NCBI GenBank assembly: GCA_045611785.1
Contig: JAZKXV010000021.1
Coordinates: forward strand, 14,903-78,902
DNA length: 64,000 nucleotides
Reading direction: 5' to 3'
From: Alphaproteobacteria bacterium
Lineage (GTDB): Bacteria; Pseudomonadota; Alphaproteobacteria; RF32; CAG-239
This document shows, piece after piece, positions 6,001 to 15,000 of this stretch. The position numbers were made by a program. Position 1 is the first letter of the stretch, and every line of letters starts with the position of its first letter.

Positions 6001-9000
6001 CGGGCACGAGTATGACAAAGGAAGAGGGAAACTCCGTTCAGGGTTGATGTATAACAATATAAAAAAAAGAAGAAGTTTTCACCTCTTCCTTTTTTGTAAG
6101 TATTGTAAGTACAACCCTTGGAACGATTATTAGTAGTATTTCCAAGCAACTGAGTTAATAGTACCGTTACCGTTACAAGCATCAACTGCTGCAGTAACAG
6201 GCATTGGTGTAGCATTTGCCCCTGTAAAATTCGTAGAACCACCACCAGGAACTGCAACAGCAGGTGTACCAGCAGCGAAAGGAGCCATTGCTGGTTCTTC
6301 TTCTGGGTCTTCAGCTTCATTACTAGCGCTTGCTACAAATTTATCTGTATAAGCACCTGCTATAAGGCTTGCAGCGCCAGCACTATTTTGTGCAGAGATA
6401 CCTAATAAACCTGAAGATTGACCAGAACCCCAGTCACCTGTTGCGATTGTTACACAAGCTTCTTGTGATAAGCCTGCATATTCAATGATGAAGGCTTCAG
6501 GTTCGGTTGGTGCTGTAGAACGAGCTGCAGCTGATGTAATTGTCACATCGCCACCGAAAGCATTAACAAGACTACCATTTTTAATCATATCATTTGGCAC
6601 AACACCAAAGTTAATTGCTGTTGTATTATTTAAGCCAGAGTAGTTACCTTGTGTAGAATAGATTGTTCTGATGTTTGCCACCAACATTGAAACTTGGTCT
6701 GTTGTTTTGTTGATTTTGAATTTGTTCATAGCTTTAGAATAACCGGCGATACCACCAACAGATAACACACCGATAATTGCTAAAACGCCGAGCATTTCAA
6801 CCATTGAACGACCTGATTCATTTGTATATTTCATAATTATCTTCCTTTTTTTAAATAAGTTACTTACATAAAAAAATCGCTCTTATAAAAAAAGCGACTG
6901 GAAGCTAAGAACTATAATAACGAAATAGCGCGGTATATTGACCGCAAGGCTTATTTTACCGCCTTCCAGTCATTTATTTAAATAACTAGTCGGCGTATAA
7001 ATTTTAACGTCCCTATACTAAAGACGCGTTATTTCGGAATTCTTAGGCTCCGGACAGCCAACTCGACTGTCTGGTTTAAATTCTTAGTACAAAAAAATTA
7101 AAATGTCAATAGTGTTATGTGTTTTGATTTTTTTTACAGTTAAGCAATTGTCACCCTCTGGCTTTGACCCGATAATCCAGGTCAAAAACATTGCCTTATA
7201 AATTCCCTGGATACTTGTGTCTATTCCTCACTTCGTTCGGGCATGAGTATGATAAAGGAAAGGACACAAAAAAAGAGGTGGTAAAACCACCTCTTAATCT
7301 ATCCAAATGTTATAAGAATTGCTTCGCCACAACCATAAGGGTCTTGTGTTTGCATTTGGCAACTATAAGCGCCTGTTTTTTGCTTACACTCGTCTGCACT
7401 ACGATAGTTATCAGCTTCGCAACTTGTTGGCTCATAACATCCACTAACTATAGTACATACTGAATTGAAGTTTGTGCTTTCACAATTCGATTCTGATGTA
7501 TATGTACATGTTGTAGCTGATGTACAACCAGTTGTCGCATCACACCAATATGGTGATGGTGGATATTTTACGTTATTACCATAATATTCGCCTGTTGAGA
7601 CCCAAGTTTTGTTAAAGCCAGAGCTTTTAACTTGCCATGTAACGCCTTTATCAGCCTCAACTTGCAGACTAGCTAAATTAACACCTGCGTCTGTTTCGCT
7701 AAGAGTTCTTGAACCTGTTGAGGTTGTAATAATCTTAGCTTTAGGGGAGTGAATATAAACGTGTGAAGGATTGAAAAAGTATTCATTACTAGCTATTGGA
7801 GCTGTAATATTTAATTCACCAGCTAAATTCATATAGTTTGGTGTAATTCTTGGTGCTGTTGAATTTGTTTCAATAGCCAATTTACTATTAGGTCCAATAG
7901 CTATAGAATTATATGAAATACCTACATTAGATCCAGTATGTTTAACATTGATTTCACCGCCATTTTGCACAGCCATAGTTACGCCATTTGATATATTGGC
8001 ATTGGAAGCCTTAATATTCACAGTACCTTCAACATTAATGCCACTATCTGTCTGACCATACATAGCAACACTGTTTGAACCACCAACTATGTCAATATCT
8101 AATGTTGCTCCACTATATAATGTTAAATCACCCATTTCTGACATATATAATGCACGGTTTGTTGTTCCGCCACGCACTTTGATAGAGTTTTTACCGTTCA
8201 TGACAAATCCGTCATTTTCATCTAACTTCAGAGCATAGTTTTCAGAAGCTGTTGATGTAACATCAATGTTAACATTAGTAAACTCTACATTAAAACCCAA
8301 ATTTATTTCAAATGCAGAGCCATTATTGGCAGTCCATACCATATTTATGTCCTTAACTGCAGCATTATCTGATCTTGTCAAAAATTTTCTGCTTTTCATT
8401 GTTAAAGTATGACCAGCACCATCAATAGTTTTAGCACCAATATTTAAGGCATCAGTAGCTGTATCAGAAGTACCATCGATATTAGCTGCTAAGGTAACTG
8501 TTGTACAAGCTGAATTGCTAAGAGCTGTTGTAAATTCTGAATAATTTGAAACTAAACAGCCATCATCAGCAACGCATTGGCCATTTACAAGCTCATAGCC
8601 ATCGTTGCACATAATTACTTCATAACAACCGTTGTCAGCTAATCCGCATGTAGCTTGCTTATTATTATATTGGCATGTATAAGATGAAACGTAGTTATCT
8701 ACACCATTACATGCACAATCTATTGCTTCGCCAGCAGCATTATACACTACCTTTGCCGAAGAGCAAGATGCTCCGTATGCAAAGCTTGTAATACCTGAAT
8801 CGCATGACACTAAATTATATTGCTCACATGTTTCTATCTTTCGACAAGCTCCATCTGCATATACTTGTCCGGAAGCACATGTCGGTGTGTTAGAAACACA
8901 AGCACCATTGGTTAATGTGTAACCGGATTGACATGTTGTTGTACTTGCCTTGTAGTAGCTTCCAAGGTCTGACATATAGATAGATGTACAATCAAAACCT

Positions 9001-12000: not shown

Positions 12001-15000
12001 TTTAACCAAGGAACATAACCGCCTGAACAAATTACGTTAGATGATGAACCAAAATAGCTATAATCGCTATCGGTACATCCGCTTTGGCATCCGGATTTGC
12101 TGTATGTAAATCCACAACGGCAAGAAAATACTGGATCGGGGTTACATTTATAGACTGTCTTACCATTTGGTTGAGCTGTACATGTTGTTGTGGATACAGA
12201 ACAGCATTCATCAGGATCATCTACCCATTCTCCGCCATCTGTTTGAGGGCATTCACAAACGGCGCGATATGTTCCTGTCGAGTCGGTACATGTTGCTCCG
12301 GAAGGAGTGCTGTTTGCACCGCACTTGAAGAACTGTGATTTATCACAAGCACATTCTCTATATTTACCACCACAGGAGATACCAACACCCATTTGACCTA
12401 CACCGTCACATGTCTCGGTAAAGCTTGCATCACAAACACAATTGCCGATGGTACAAGCAACATAATCTTCTCCATCAGCAGTTTTACCTTCGCAAGATTT
12501 ATCAAGGCAAGTTAAGCCTAATTCAGGGGAGCATTCTTCATAGACATTTATATTTGAACAACAGTCCGCAGGGTCATAGTAATCTTTCTCGCCGTCACGA
12601 CATGACGCAGCGTTCAGCCTAGGAATTACACATAACTCTTTATCAGGACAAGCTTCCGTCTCCAACTCAATAAAATCTTCAAGAACACCACCGCCAATAC
12701 AGTTAGTAGCATTACCAGACTCGTCGGTCGCCGAAGCTAAAAAACAAACTCGAGCTTCTGAAGTTGTACATAAACACAGCAACAAACCCAGAATACATAA
12801 GAACACCCTAGACTTAAACATAATACCCCCTTGGTAAAATAATCCACTTTTGATTTATTTTATCAAAAAAAAATCTAATTGTCAACGATACAATTAGATT
12901 TTTTACCCTGATAAGATTTATGTTTTAAATGTTTTTTTTACGCAAATCAGCTATCAAATCAGCCACACCATTTTTTGATTTTTTTATGTATGCTGTATAC
13001 TCATTTCGAGCCGTTATCGCCAAACTCACATTTTCAATTATGATATCAACAACTTTTAAGTTGCCACCATCTTCTTTAACTCTCCAGATAACTTTTGCAG
13101 GTGCACCTTGTGGCATAGTAACTGAGGTGTTAACAAAAATTTGGTTCTTAGAATTTGAAGCCGAAGTTCCGTTAAACTCAAAGCTTTTGCCCTTGAACTC
13201 GTCAAATCTTTTAGACCATGTTTTTATGTTCATCTCTCGATATGCTTCTATAAAATCTTTACGTTCTTGAGCTGAGGCCGTATTCCAATAGCGGCCCAAT
13301 ACAAATCGTCCTATAAAATCTAAATCAAGATACTTATTAAACAACGCTTCAAAACGCTTATCTTTTTGTTCTTGAGAAACATCAGCATTAATTATTTGCT
13401 CAATTCCGTCAGCGGTCATTTTTCTAATAAAATCTTCTGCTTTTTTTGCATCAAAATCTGCACATACAGGCAAAGAAAAAAGCATAATGCCCGTTAAAAT
13501 TAGCGTAAAAAGTTTTTTCATATTAGTCACCTTTCAATTTTATCTATTCAAAATCTTCCTCAAAATCAAAATCATAGCTAAGAGCGCCAGAAGCTTCTTC
13601 TTGTTTTGCGCAAAGACTTACAAACTTTTGGCGGTTTTGCATAAATGCAGATTTTGTTGCTTCATAAAAGTCAACCGAACCCTGCTCCAAACTCTTTAAG
13701 AGTTCCATATTTTTAGCTCTTAAATTTATGTATTTTACAGCAGCTGCACCCCATACAATTGTATCTGATTTTTCACCATCAGAATTTATAAGTGCCCAAT
13801 ATAACGGACTTAAATAAGCATCTGCCGTCCAACCGGCAACATATCGCGGTGTTGCAGGACCAACCAACGGTATTATAATGAACGGACCATCAGGCACACA
13901 ATACTTTGCAAGAGTCGCATCAAAACCAGTCTTTTTAATTTCAAGCCCCCAACCTGCAGCAACATCAAAAGTGCCAAGCAAACCCAATGTGCTGTTTATA
14001 ACAAATCGTCCGGCAGATATACCTGTGTTCTTTACCTCTCCTTGCAACAAATGATTTACCATATAAGCAGGCTCTTCTAAGTTGTTAAAAAAAGCACCTA
14101 CCCGATTGCGAACAAATTCATTAGTTACTTTTTTATATCCGGTAGCAATCGGCAACATTACTTTTTTATCTACCTGATAGTTAAAATCAAACATAGCTCT
14201 GTTATATGTTTCAAGTGCGCTATCACCATTATTTTCTGTGCCGATTGAACACGAACACAGAACAATGGTTGCCAACATTAACAAAACTTTATTATACATT
14301 TAACTATCCTTTTGTTTTATTTTTTTCTTCAATGCCTATAAATATAACAATTTTACGTATTAAATCAATAAAAATATATTGTAATTTAGCACAGTTTTTT
14401 TGTTACAATCAAGAAATGTTTTGTGTTTTGCATATTACATATAATTAGCATATTATCCGCTTAGTTGAAATTTTTTGAAGGATTAATAAATATGACTAAT
14501 AAACCAGAAAAAGCTATTAACTTGTTCGACTGTTCTACTTCTCAAAAAATCATCGGACAAGAAAAGTTTTTAGAAGCTTTTAAGAAAATTTTGGATCATG
14601 GCGCATATTGTCAAGGTCATGAAACTAGAGAATTAGATCAAAAATTAGCAGAATATTCAAATACTAAATATTGCGCAACTTGCGGTTCTGGTACAGATGC
14701 TTTAACTCTTGCTCTTATGGCTTGGGATGTTAAACCTGGTGATGCTGTTTTTGTTTCTTCTTTCACATTCGTTGCAACAGCTGAAGCTCCTGTTTTATTA
14801 GGTGCAACTCCAATTTTCGTTGACTCAAAACCAGATACATTCAATATGGACCCTGAAGATTTGAAACGCGCTATCAGTGAAGTTAAAAGCGAAGGCAAAC
14901 TTAACTTAAAAGCAGTTATTCCTGTTGATATTTTCGGTTCTCCTTGCGAATACGATGAAATCATTAAAATTGCACACGACAACGGCATGAAAGTTCTTTC

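Follow-up and report, generated by a model that had tools for sequence, protein, structure and literature searches.

The closest described systems to the locus examined here are the fibrillar adhesins, in which a stalk is combined with an interchangeable adhesive domain, SRRP-like beta-solenoids included (PMC9210967). TcpF and CofJ, which are encoded beside type IVb pilin genes, are Sec-exported and folded in the periplasm. Their recognition depends on the mature N-terminus, which is flexible and contains a critical aromatic residue (PMC9565799). In the PilV shufflon of R64, a constant N-terminal part is followed by alternative C-terminal segments. EGF-like modules (cbEGF/cEGF; Plasmodium MSP1-19, RIPR, Pvs25) measure ~40 aa, hold as many as six Cys around a central beta-hairpin and form long arrays on extracellular proteins. 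The binding regions of the Lactobacillus reuteri SRRPs (PDB 5NY0) are the archetype of the beta-solenoid adhesins, and the Pfam family PF20585 (Pectate_lyase_5) was presumably built from SRRP-like proteins.

Here we describe a gene in a 64,000-nt stretch of DNA (the window) from an uncultured gut alphaproteobacterium. A single ORF (7299-12821, minus strand), already listed in an earlier note on this DNA and intact and uninterrupted in the assembly, encodes a protein of 1840 aa with 163 Cys (8.9% of residues). Like the fibrillar adhesins or 'periscope' proteins (Monzon & Bateman, PMC9210967), this protein is large, has a repetitive stalk that varies in repeat number between relatives, ends on one side in a domain of a known adhesive type, and shows signs that its tip is exchanged while the stalk stays constant. 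In contrast to them, its stalk is not Ig-like, Big or G5-type and consists of ~40-aa disulfide modules that are absent from Pfam. Moreover, the host is Gram-negative, LPXTG, autotransporter or T1SS features are absent from the protein, and the adhesive domain is C-terminal, the conserved end being the N-terminus. The protein is probably a surface adhesin, for which we infer surface exposure, adhesion and a route across the outer membrane.

The coordinates of its features are collected in Table 1. The candidate promoter is situated in the 103-nt gap between mlaC and the gene, and the ribosome-binding site, previously described as very strong, is indeed present. The terminator hairpin is also kept in the sister strain described below. 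Judged by these signals, the gene is a monocistronic unit with its own promoter and terminator, and its GC content is unremarkable, being the same as that of the surroundings.

Table 1. Features of the gene for the 1840-aa protein, with positions in the window.
Feature	Position	Strand	Basis
Candidate sigma-70-like promoter, TTGACA-17-TAAAAT, TG upstream	12857..12885	-	11/12 consensus matches, top site of scanned region; consensus match only
Ribosome-binding site AAGGGGG, ATG 4 nt downstream	12826..12832	-	Read from upstream sequence
Putative Sec signal peptide, aa 1-23 (MFKSR, hydrophobic core, TSEA/RV)	12753..12821	-	Read from sequence
Family-defining N-terminal Cys-rich domain, aa 24-335, 38 Cys	11817..12752	-	~20 homologues share this part alone
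Stalk-like array, aa 343-1416, 110 Cys	8574..11795	-	Module HMM and regular-expression map
Cys-poor beta-helix-type domain (predicted), aa 1417-1757	7551..8573	-	PF20585 match over first ~100 aa
Strain-variable C-terminal cassette, aa 1420 to stop codon	7296..8563	-	Unrelated 391-nt segment in sister strain
C-terminal Cys region, aa 1758-1840, 10 Cys, tail ...DPYGCGEAILITFG	7302..7550	-	Last A module aa 1774-1812, 35.9 bits
Intrinsic terminator hairpin AAGAGGTGG-TTTTA-CCACCTCTT and T run, 3 nt past stop codon	7273..7295	-	10 pairs, 5 G-C

As had been proposed, the protein appears to be secreted: its N-terminus reads as a Sec-type signal peptide with a cleavage site (MFKSRVFLCILGLLLCLCTTSEA, cleaved before RV), and export is predicted. 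The layout A-x-A, then [RK]-[VI]-C-F-L, is common to all full-length homologues. A prepilin leader (G/xxxxE with a hydrophobic helix) is absent from this N-terminus, where the Sec signal peptide is followed by RVCFL instead. The mature product has 160 Cys, with an even number in each region (38, 110, 2 and 10). The first ~335 aa contain a separate conserved Cys-rich domain, which the earlier note had not set apart. This ~310-aa domain (N-domain), which defines the family, closes with a mini-module, C-x2-LGY-x3-C-x6-CPF-x5-KC. In the AF2 model (mean pLDDT 77) it is all-beta, with a core (aa ~54-223) above 90 and the first ~30 residues at low confidence. Searches of the N-domain against Pfam, NCBIfam and PDB returned nothing significant, and no PDB neighbour was found, its fold not being recognisable. 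It is the common core of the family and likely the cell-proximal or export-recognition end.

The stalk-like array comprises 16 A modules (~40 aa), six GCGxC hairpins and five 'C-x3-G-[YF]' B modules. More than ten modules had been predicted, and an A-module HMM scored 17 copies at 16 bits or more in the protein, whereas 50 shuffles yielded none at 10 bits or more. The modules themselves differ from their first description. The strict pattern proposed for them, used as a regular expression, matches once only (aa 774-807); they are about 40-42 aa long with six Cys in the full form, and not ~35 residues with four Cys (the proposed pattern itself has five); and they are not strictly tandem, as A modules alternate with GCGxC hairpins and B modules. 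Four of the Cys are near-invariant, and C1 and C25 are gained or lost together (Fisher p = 4.5e-6). An AF2 model of one A module is confident (pLDDT 94.5). The module would be a short helix joined to a beta-hairpin and locked by as many as three disulfides, in which C1 would pair with C25, as their co-occurrence suggests, and the remaining pairs are assigned by analogy. In Pfam, NCBIfam and PDB the A module likewise had no significant counterpart, and a search of its profile against PDB sequences was empty at E <= 10; the Cys-rich parts in general match no Pfam or NCBIfam family. On these comparisons, the disulfide-locked stalk modules are previously undescribed and the N-domain family is unannotated.

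The beta-helix had been placed in the centre of the protein, flanked by modules. It is indeed flanked, by 16 modules before and one after, but it lies near the C-terminus. This Cys-poor region of ~340 aa (2 Cys in 341 aa) is rich in beta-strands and, as described, in Asn, Gly and Thr (31% N+G+T). PF20585 matches aa 1424-1518: a scan limited to aa 1417-1840 gives 28.7 bits (E = 1.6e-6), above the gathering threshold of 24.3, and a scan of the whole protein gives 24.2 bits. Beyond the ~100 aa that the profile covers, the domain has no database match, and no PDB sequence match was obtained, solved beta-solenoids included. As for the pectate-lyase-like periodicity that had been reported, only the hydrophobic i+2 beta-strand alternation is significant (z = 3.8). 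Because long-range solenoid periodicity was not detected in the region, nor any sharp coil period, the beta-helix call rests on the Pfam match and not on periodicity. An independent genome (P0025) also has the junction between modules and beta-helix; its domain scores 27.1 bits to PF20585 and is 36% identical to the one here over 390 aa. The C-terminal ending of the protein resembles that of two other homologues (P0016 and P0022), GCAEMLYCFGG. Unlike the SRRPs, which are serine-rich repeat proteins with aSec export, the domain stands here in a Cys-rich, Gram-negative context. We consider it a predicted PF20585-type beta-helix, which is an adhesive domain class.

The allele of a sister strain, represented by six identical metagenome copies, is 99.5% identical over codons 1-1419. 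The differences in these 1419 codons are 18 synonymous and three non-synonymous, and seven of them cluster beside the junction. The swap is exact, between aa 1419 and the terminator, with flanks that are 99.7% and 96.7% identical, and the tail of the sister strain (125 aa) is unrelated to the beta-helix cassette and contains more Cys modules. This variation resembles an allelic replacement brought about by homologous recombination. The alternative cassette was not found elsewhere in the window. In having a constant N-terminal part, alternative C-terminal segments and an R64/TCP-like type IVb pilus in the genome, the system resembles the R64 PilV shufflon, but it has no prepilin leader, and silent cassettes, inverted repeats or a recombinase are absent nearby. 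The 1840-aa allele was found in one assembly only, the window's own contig, and the join within it may be an assembly chimera.

Consistent with the suggestion that this architecture is rare in bacteria, the family has 37 representatives among 1.84 billion (1.84e9) proteins, none of them annotated, and relatives were found in other bacterial contigs. Among homologues, the A-module copy number ranges from 0 to 22, and unrelated C-terminal parts follow the N-domain, which is kept: the part is lacking, or consists of other Cys modules or an Lcl_C/DUF1566-like domain. Orthologs contain a possible phase-variable poly-G tract. N-domain-only proteins of ~323 aa are the most abundant form, with clusters of 72 and 19 sequences, so the core function may reside in the N-domain and not in tip adhesion.

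The gene neighbourhood raises the question of whether the protein is a pilus-associated adhesin or a colonisation factor secreted through the secretin of the type IVb pilus and docking on the pilus tip like TcpF and CofJ, with R-V-C-F-L as a secretion signal bound by a minor pilin. As noted earlier, a pilin gene (6130-6834), here assigned to type IVb (PF08805 PilS 4e-17; PF05307 Bundlin), follows in the same orientation across a 464-nt spacer that holds one copy of a 79-nt repeat. Two genes beyond it, a 1147-aa ORF (763-4206) without a Pfam match carries a prepilin leader (G/SMMVE) and is a candidate minor pilin or tip protein of the pilus itself. A complete type IVb pilus cluster is present at 42.3-53.4 kb, with TcpQ, secretin, PilO, ATPase, platform protein and a second pilin (52892-53449) that likewise matches PilS/Bundlin. 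A folded, oxidised protein requires a secretin-type exit. As in TcpF and CofJ, the protein is predicted to be Sec-exported, folded in the periplasm and encoded beside a type IVb pilin gene, and its mature N-terminus is conserved, probably flexible and aromatic-bearing: [RK]-[VI]-C-F-L hardly varies among family members and lies within the low-confidence first ~30 residues of the model. However, the gene stands outside the pilus operon, with its own promoter and with the terminator between it and the pilin gene. Orthologous loci in two other lineages retain the mlaA-mlaC neighbours, but the pilin neighbourhood was seen only in the lineage of the window: the L010 ortholog has no pilin downstream, and none was seen for L011 and L012, whose contigs stop 0.1-1.2 kb beyond the gene. 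Relatives from unrelated contexts carry the N-terminal motif too. TcpF and CofJ are not similar in sequence to the protein and are missing from its PDB sequence matches at E <= 1, and at 1840 aa the protein is far larger than either. To our knowledge, known substrates of the type IVb pilus route are much smaller. The protein is thus probably not part of the pilus operon, the functional tie to the pilin suggested in the earlier note is not supported, and we regard a pilus-associated adhesin or TcpF/CofJ-like factor as unlikely.

Three further readings were weighed. The gene order degT / mlaA / mlaC / N-domain gene is common to three lineages, and no outer-membrane export signal was found, as might be expected of an envelope protein tied to Mla lipid transport in the periplasm or on the inner face of the outer membrane. 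This is very unlikely, in our view: the order may be simple inheritance, since the three lineages are related, paralogs are located in other settings (e.g. beside lolA or dus/trkA), the gene has its own promoter and terminator, and the PF20585 tip, the strain-specific cassette swapping and the possible phase-variable tract of orthologs are hallmarks of exposed proteins. The cassette-like exchange behind a conserved N-terminus in near-identical strains also recalls polymorphic toxins or effectors, in which the conserved part delivers a variable payload, and neighbouring type IV secretion genes give RHS-repeat matches. Yet neither cassette is toxin-like, one being a PF20585 beta-helix and the other Cys modules, Pfam pre-toxin or toxin domains were not found, and the next features are the terminator and the pilin gene and not an immunity-like ORF, which makes a toxin highly improbable. 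Finally, the architecture had been called eukaryote-like (EGF- or VSP-like), with possible horizontal transfer in mind; an EGF-, VSP- or ciliate-antigen-like protein might then have come from a eukaryotic donor such as a rumen protist. A faint resemblance does exist: size, Cys number, hairpin and long extracellular arrays are shared with EGF-like modules, C-x2-G-Y-x-L-x2-G-x-C resembles the last loop of cEGF, the top Foldseek neighbours of the module are the EGF-like domains of Plasmodium RIPR and MSP1-19 (TM 0.45-0.60, non-significant, E >= 3.2), and 2-3 of 71 family modules give weak, sub-threshold EGF-type Pfam matches (top cEGF, 3.7e-6, two homologue modules). However, the A module has a predicted N-terminal helix, has five residues and not one between the fourth and fifth Cys, and would have a C1-C25 (1-4) bond, against 1-3, 2-4 and 5-6 in EGF. 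The whole protein gave no EGF family at E <= 1, and ten window modules scanned singly all fell below the EGF gathering scores (best EGF_MSP1_1, 15.3 bits against 27). About 20 full-length N-domain homologues have a bacterial signal peptide, all homologue contexts that were read are in bacterial contigs, and the GC content equals that of the surroundings. A eukaryotic origin is therefore hardly credible.

We give somewhat better than an even chance to a fibrillar-adhesin-like protein whose stalk is of a new, disulfide-locked kind and whose tip can be exchanged. A repetitive stalk (17 A modules plus B modules and hairpins, ~1070 aa) is combined here with the adhesive domain PF20585, and the adhesin proposed at the outset is the most reasonable prediction; that its target is a eukaryotic host is pure conjecture. 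The protein would be exported by Sec, lose its signal peptide and then fold with disulfides outside the cytoplasm. Its ~310-aa all-beta Cys-rich domain would form the cell-proximal or export-recognition end, followed by a ~1070-aa stalk of small disulfide-locked modules, with A modules alternating with GCGxC hairpins and B modules. The distal tip would be, in this strain, a PF20585 pectate-lyase-like beta-helix capped by one A module, a type of tip that bacterial adhesins use for binding polysaccharide or host surfaces. Tips would be exchanged among strains by recombination, with the remaining gene under strong purifying selection. No outer-membrane anchor or known secretion signal was found in the 1840-aa sequence; for crossing the outer membrane, a fully oxidised protein would best suit an exit of the secretin type, such as that of the type IVb pilus machine at 42-53 kb.

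In a more elaborate form of this fibrillar-adhesin-like reading, which we consider quite unlikely, disulfide-stalk adhesins would make up a class that uses R-V-C-F-L as a type IVb-pilus secretion and docking signal, leaves the cell on the tip of the pilus, attached to the 1147-aa minor pilin, and presents strain-specific cassette tips. If true, this would be an unrecognised class of Gram-negative adhesins, in which both A module and N-domain would represent new folds and the tips of orthologs may be phase-variable through the poly-G tract.

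The Cys-rich protein was encoded by a single unbroken frame in an ORF search, starting at ATG and specifying 1840 aa, which bears out the gene described in an earlier note made from the sequence. The AAGGGGG ribosome binding site reported there was found 4 nt upstream of the start codon, and the gene is free of G or C runs of at least 6 nt and of A or T runs of at least 7 nt. A sigma-70-like promoter, the best site in the scanned region, precedes the gene, and a G+C-rich hairpin with a T run follows its stop codon. Having its own promoter and this terminator-like element, the gene looks like a separate transcription unit. 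The product contains 163 Cys (8.9%), and its 247 D+E against 105 K+R make it strongly acidic. Its N-terminus, MFKSRVFLCILGLLLCLCTTSEA|RVCFL, carries an A-x-A-type cleavage site and reads as a Sec signal peptide. Lipidation at the N-terminal Cys was rejected, as the preceding A-R-V, S-R-I and A-K-V are unlike a lipobox and a polar A-x-A c-region lies before them.

Features of the locus and of related loci (window coordinates unless a contig is named)
Feature	Coordinates	Strand	Details
Promoter, TTGACA-17-TAAAAT	12885-12857	-	TG extension
Cys-rich protein gene	7299-12821	-	1840 aa
Mini-module	11832-11912		aa 304-330; C-x2-LGY-x3-C-x6-CPF-x5-KC
C-terminal end	7302-7340		aa 1828-1840; …DPYGCGEAILITFG
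Hairpin, 10 bp, then T run	7295-7273	-	3 nt past stop codon
79-nt element, three copies	5783-5861, 5939-6017, 7176-7254		intergenic, both flanks of the pilin gene
Type IVb pilin	6130-6834	-	PilS 4e-17, Bundlin 3e-12
C-terminal half of pilin	6216-6578	-	compared with sister strain
243-aa ORF	4217-4948	-	directly upstream of 1147-aa ORF
1147-aa ORF	763-4206	-	N-terminus …QGG|SMMVEAMAMLALIALV; 0.3% Cys
VirB-type cluster	16721-41139	-	two VirB8, VirB9/CagX with SPOR domain, VirB4, VirB11
Type IVb pilus biogenesis cluster	42359-53449	+	complete; 687-aa unknown, TcpQ-like, secretin, PilO-like, 558-aa unknown, T2SSE ATPase, T2SSF platform protein, second pilin
Second pilin, PilS/bundlin-type	52892-53449	+	end of pilus cluster
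G9 tract (contigs L011, L012)	7975-7983		after mlaC; ends N-domain ORF (…KKCLGGGSN*)
Overlapping frame (L011, L012)	7812-8843		(PE)n linker and Lcl_C/DUF1566-like domain
Cys-rich gene arrays (L007; L008)	5254-13030; 1943-5504		beside lolA

To count the ~40-aa Cys module (A module), we used an HMM seeded with 14 hand-picked copies and iterated once. At a threshold of at least 16 bits, it identified 17 copies, 16 within aa 345-1416 and one at aa 1774-1812, and with the same HMM no copy reached 10 bits in 50 shuffled sequences. The repeated module noted earlier is therefore real, although the strict pattern first given for it matched only once. The consensus of 71 non-redundant family copies, C-x-Y-x5-C-E-x2-N-x-N-S-x-C-x5-G-C-Y-x-P-x2-C-K-x-G-Y-x6-C, shows that a full module has six Cys rather than four. 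Those at positions 9, 18 and 31 are invariant and that at position 42 nearly so. Because Cys 1 and Cys 25 come and go together (both present in 48 copies, both absent in 12, one alone in 11; Fisher p = 4.5e-6), we infer that they form a disulfide; the other predicted pairs are C9-C18 and C31-C42, unlike the EGF pattern of 1-3, 2-4 and 5-6. Unlike the tandem arrangement proposed earlier, the modules are not strictly consecutive; they alternate with six 'GCGxC' hairpins and five copies of a B module ('C-x3-G-[YF]...C-x-C'). The N-terminal domain ends in a mini-module related to the B module (C-x2-LGY...CPF...KC). Without the signal peptide the protein has 160 Cys, and their number is even in every region, at 38 in the N-domain, 110 in the array, 2 in the Cys-poor region and 10 in the tail, as expected if all Cys were paired.

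AlphaFold2 modelled a single A module (aa 766-807, with the 71-copy alignment) at a mean pLDDT of 94.5, with residues 6-12 forming a short helix and residues 16-20 and 26-31 a beta-hairpin. A Foldseek search of this model against the PDB gave no significant match; the best neighbours were EGF-like domains of Plasmodium RIPR and MSP1-19 (E = 3.2-9, TM 0.45-0.60). Pfam scans of single modules likewise returned only sub-threshold EGF-type or TIL matches, the best window module scoring 15.3 bits against EGF_MSP1_1 (cut-off 27), while two homologue modules matched cEGF, at up to 3.7e-6. Against PDB sequences, the A-module profile found nothing at E <= 10 and a search with the whole protein found nothing meaningful. 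The A module and the N-domain are two domain families with no Pfam or NCBIfam entry and no significant match to solved structures.

The region described earlier as a central beta-helix lies close to the C-terminus, at aa 1417-1757. It contains 2 Cys and 31% N+G+T. PF20585, a putative pectate-lyase-like adhesive domain, scored 24.2 bits in the whole-protein scan (cut-off 24.3) and 28.7 bits (E = 1.6e-6) in the isolated 424-aa tail. The hydrophobic pattern has a period of 2 (z = 3.8), and its autocorrelation had no standout coil-length period. The PF20585 match favors the pectate-lyase-like beta-solenoid of the earlier note, but its coil periodicity was not detected. A profile of the region matched no solved structure among PDB sequences, and its assignment as a putative beta-helix rests on composition and on the Pfam match of the first ~100 aa. 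Searched alone in the word-indexed database, the region gave no matches; the representative of the window's cluster is an allele without the beta-helix, which hides the domain almost entirely from such a search. P0025, a fragment from another assembly recovered only by exhaustive search, has A modules followed by a beta-helix and is 36% identical to the window protein over 390 aa including the junction (E = 2e-48). Therefore, this layout is not peculiar to the window contig.

Homologues were few. A word-indexed search of 5.8 billion clusters gave three matches, aa 225-1420 searched exhaustively with HMMER against 1.84 billion representatives gave 37 proteins at E <= 1e-3, and scans of genome contigs and metagenome contigs added one short locus each. 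Precomputed Pfam domains were absent from all matches listed in the annotated searches. Where a homologue had a name at all, it was 'hypothetical protein [Alphaproteobacteria bacterium]', and the sole genome-collection locus was titled 'MAG: Alphaproteobacteria bacterium'. We found nothing relevant in the literature on a described bacterial family of this kind. The lineage is uncultured and, from record names only (such as XIEF21-1 and TONG22-1), apparently of ruminant gut origin. The 19 sequences of one alignment (A4) diverged too far for a pattern to be designed from them.

The relatives fell into three groups. Eleven (P0002, P0003, P0006, P0007, P0013, P0016, P0022, P0025, P0029, P0031 and P0035) have A modules, as many as 22 in one protein. 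About 20 have in common only the ~310-aa N-terminal Cys-rich domain, which begins directly after the signal peptide with [RK]-[VI]-C-F-L, ends in the CxxLGY...CPF...KC mini-module, and is followed by nothing, by unrelated Cys-rich segments, or by an Lcl_C/DUF1566-like domain (P0010). The largest clusters, of 72 and 19 sequences, consist of N-domain-only forms. The third group, P0033, P0038, P0039 and P0040, has the mini-module alone in common. One or two copies start these otherwise unrelated proteins, so the mini-module is more widespread than the family. Judged by eye, the remainder of such proteins resembles a domain of the phage tail-collar or 'microcystin-dependent protein' type, with a tail-collar-like C-terminal part in P0033, P0038 and P0039.

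Two observations concern protein ends. P0016 and P0022, distant relatives from another organism, end in …DKNGCAEMLYCFGG, and this ending, together with that of the window protein, may represent a conserved C-terminal motif. The arrays beside lolA hold two to three consecutive A-module Cys-rich genes, each with its own signal peptide, and several of their products share a Gly-rich terminal tag (…GAQGHSGGGN, …GHSAGSGN, …GGGHSAGNGN).

One and the same allele of 1543 aa, with the same genes around it, was present on six metagenome contigs from six samples. Over the common codons 1-1419 the strains are 99.5% identical, and the 21 nt differences, seven of which lie in codons 1387-1396, comprise 18 synonymous and 3 non-synonymous changes. 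These counts show strong purifying selection on the shared codons and hence that the gene is a real coding sequence. The window's 1268 nt that begin at codon 1420 and stop just short of the terminator (beta-helix and last A module) give way in the sister strain to an unrelated 391 nt encoding one B-like and one A-like module; homology returns at the terminator. No copies of the alternative cassette were found elsewhere in the window, and shufflon-like switching was rejected for lack of such silent copies. We interpret the exchange as an allele replaced through recombination rather than as the work of a switching system. Between the same strains, the N-terminal DNA of the downstream pilin gene is ~97% identical and its last ~120 codons are largely unalignable, with one 99-nt piece of the C-terminal half aligning at 85%. 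Thus, the pilin and the Cys-rich protein are each C-terminally variable between near-identical strains.

In two orthologous loci (L011 and L012), a G9 tract exactly ends the N-domain ORF, and with one G fewer the frame would continue into a linker and a further domain. P0026 and P0028 have similar endings (CLGGGGK, CLGGGN). The tract may make the C-terminal domain phase-variable, or it may be an error in sequencing a homopolymer; such a poly-G tract at the domain junction of orthologs could turn the tip on or off.

As described earlier, a pilin gene, here identified as type IVb, lies downstream on the same strand, across a repeat-rich spacer of 464 nt. The spacer holds one of three copies of a 79-nt element (76-85% identical to the reference), which looks like a small dispersed intergenic repeat. 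Beyond the pilin are an oppositely oriented GIY-YIG ORF and two ORFs of 243 and 1147 aa. The 1147-aa ORF has no Pfam match and an N-terminus that fits a prepilin leader; it is a candidate for a giant minor pilin or for the tip protein of the type IVb pilus. The pilus biogenesis cluster itself is 35 kb from this pilin. Upstream of the gene are mlaC, mlaA, a DegT-type aminotransferase and a VirB-type type IV secretion cluster. Two giant VirB10-like proteins of that cluster (1418 aa with a TrbI/VirB10 domain, and 1702 aa) are dense in beta-flower (PF21785/PF21784), DUF3659 and RHS-repeat matches, and its further large ORFs (1410, 429 and 426 aa) had no Pfam match. Two further lineages also have the order degT, mlaA, mlaC, N-domain gene. 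The L010 ortholog has 783 aa and is succeeded by a 59-aa ORF and miaA but by no pilin. The ortholog of L011 and L012, of 330 aa, has the same position, and these contigs stop 0.1-1.2 kb beyond it and give little information on downstream genes. Paralogs lie beside lolA in multi-gene Cys-rich arrays (L007, L008) or beside dus/trkA. These contexts, together with the terminator, show that the pilin neighbourhood is specific to the window lineage and offer no evidence for an operon, contrary to the pilus link proposed earlier.

The suggestion that the protein is an adhesin fared better than its pilus association. The anatomy of the protein fits the plan of fibrillar adhesins, a repetitive stalk and a recognised adhesive domain (PMC9210967), here of the PF20585 type. 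In that plan, stalk length varies among relatives and the adhesive domain is movable between stalks (PMC9210967). The window protein differs in that its stalk consists of previously undescribed small disulfide-locked modules, its conserved end is N-terminal, and its host is Gram-negative, with no known anchor or outer-membrane export signal visible. Horizontal transfer from a eukaryote, also proposed earlier, found no support, since every homologue context read was bacterial and GC was unremarkable.

With ~80 disulfides, the protein would have to fold in the periplasm. Chains leave unfolded by the type I and type V routes, whereas secretin systems carry proteins out already folded. The best-fitting exit would therefore be a secretin machine, such as the window's type IVb pilus system. 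TcpF and CofJ are exported through a type IVb pilus, and their recognition depends on a mature N-terminus that is flexible and in which an aromatic residue is key (PMC9565799). The R-V-C-F-L start, near-invariant across the family, is suggestive of such recognition; that it serves pilus-secretin export in this way is nonetheless unlikely on our estimate. Readings of the protein as a toxin, or as linked to the Mla genes, are weaker still.

The large modular adhesin is well known as a general kind, and the window protein represents a new and very rare family whose way of working, as far as can be inferred, matches that kind. Its ~80 potential disulfides would be exceptional for a bacterial extracellular protein, and its confidently modelled A module would be a testable new mini-fold. 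The locus is a clear case, found in nature, of predicted tip domains being exchanged while the stalk stays the same. It raises the question of how a Gram-negative cell would export a very large, fully oxidised protein, and the protein is a candidate determinant of bacterial sticking to plant polysaccharide, other microbes or the host.
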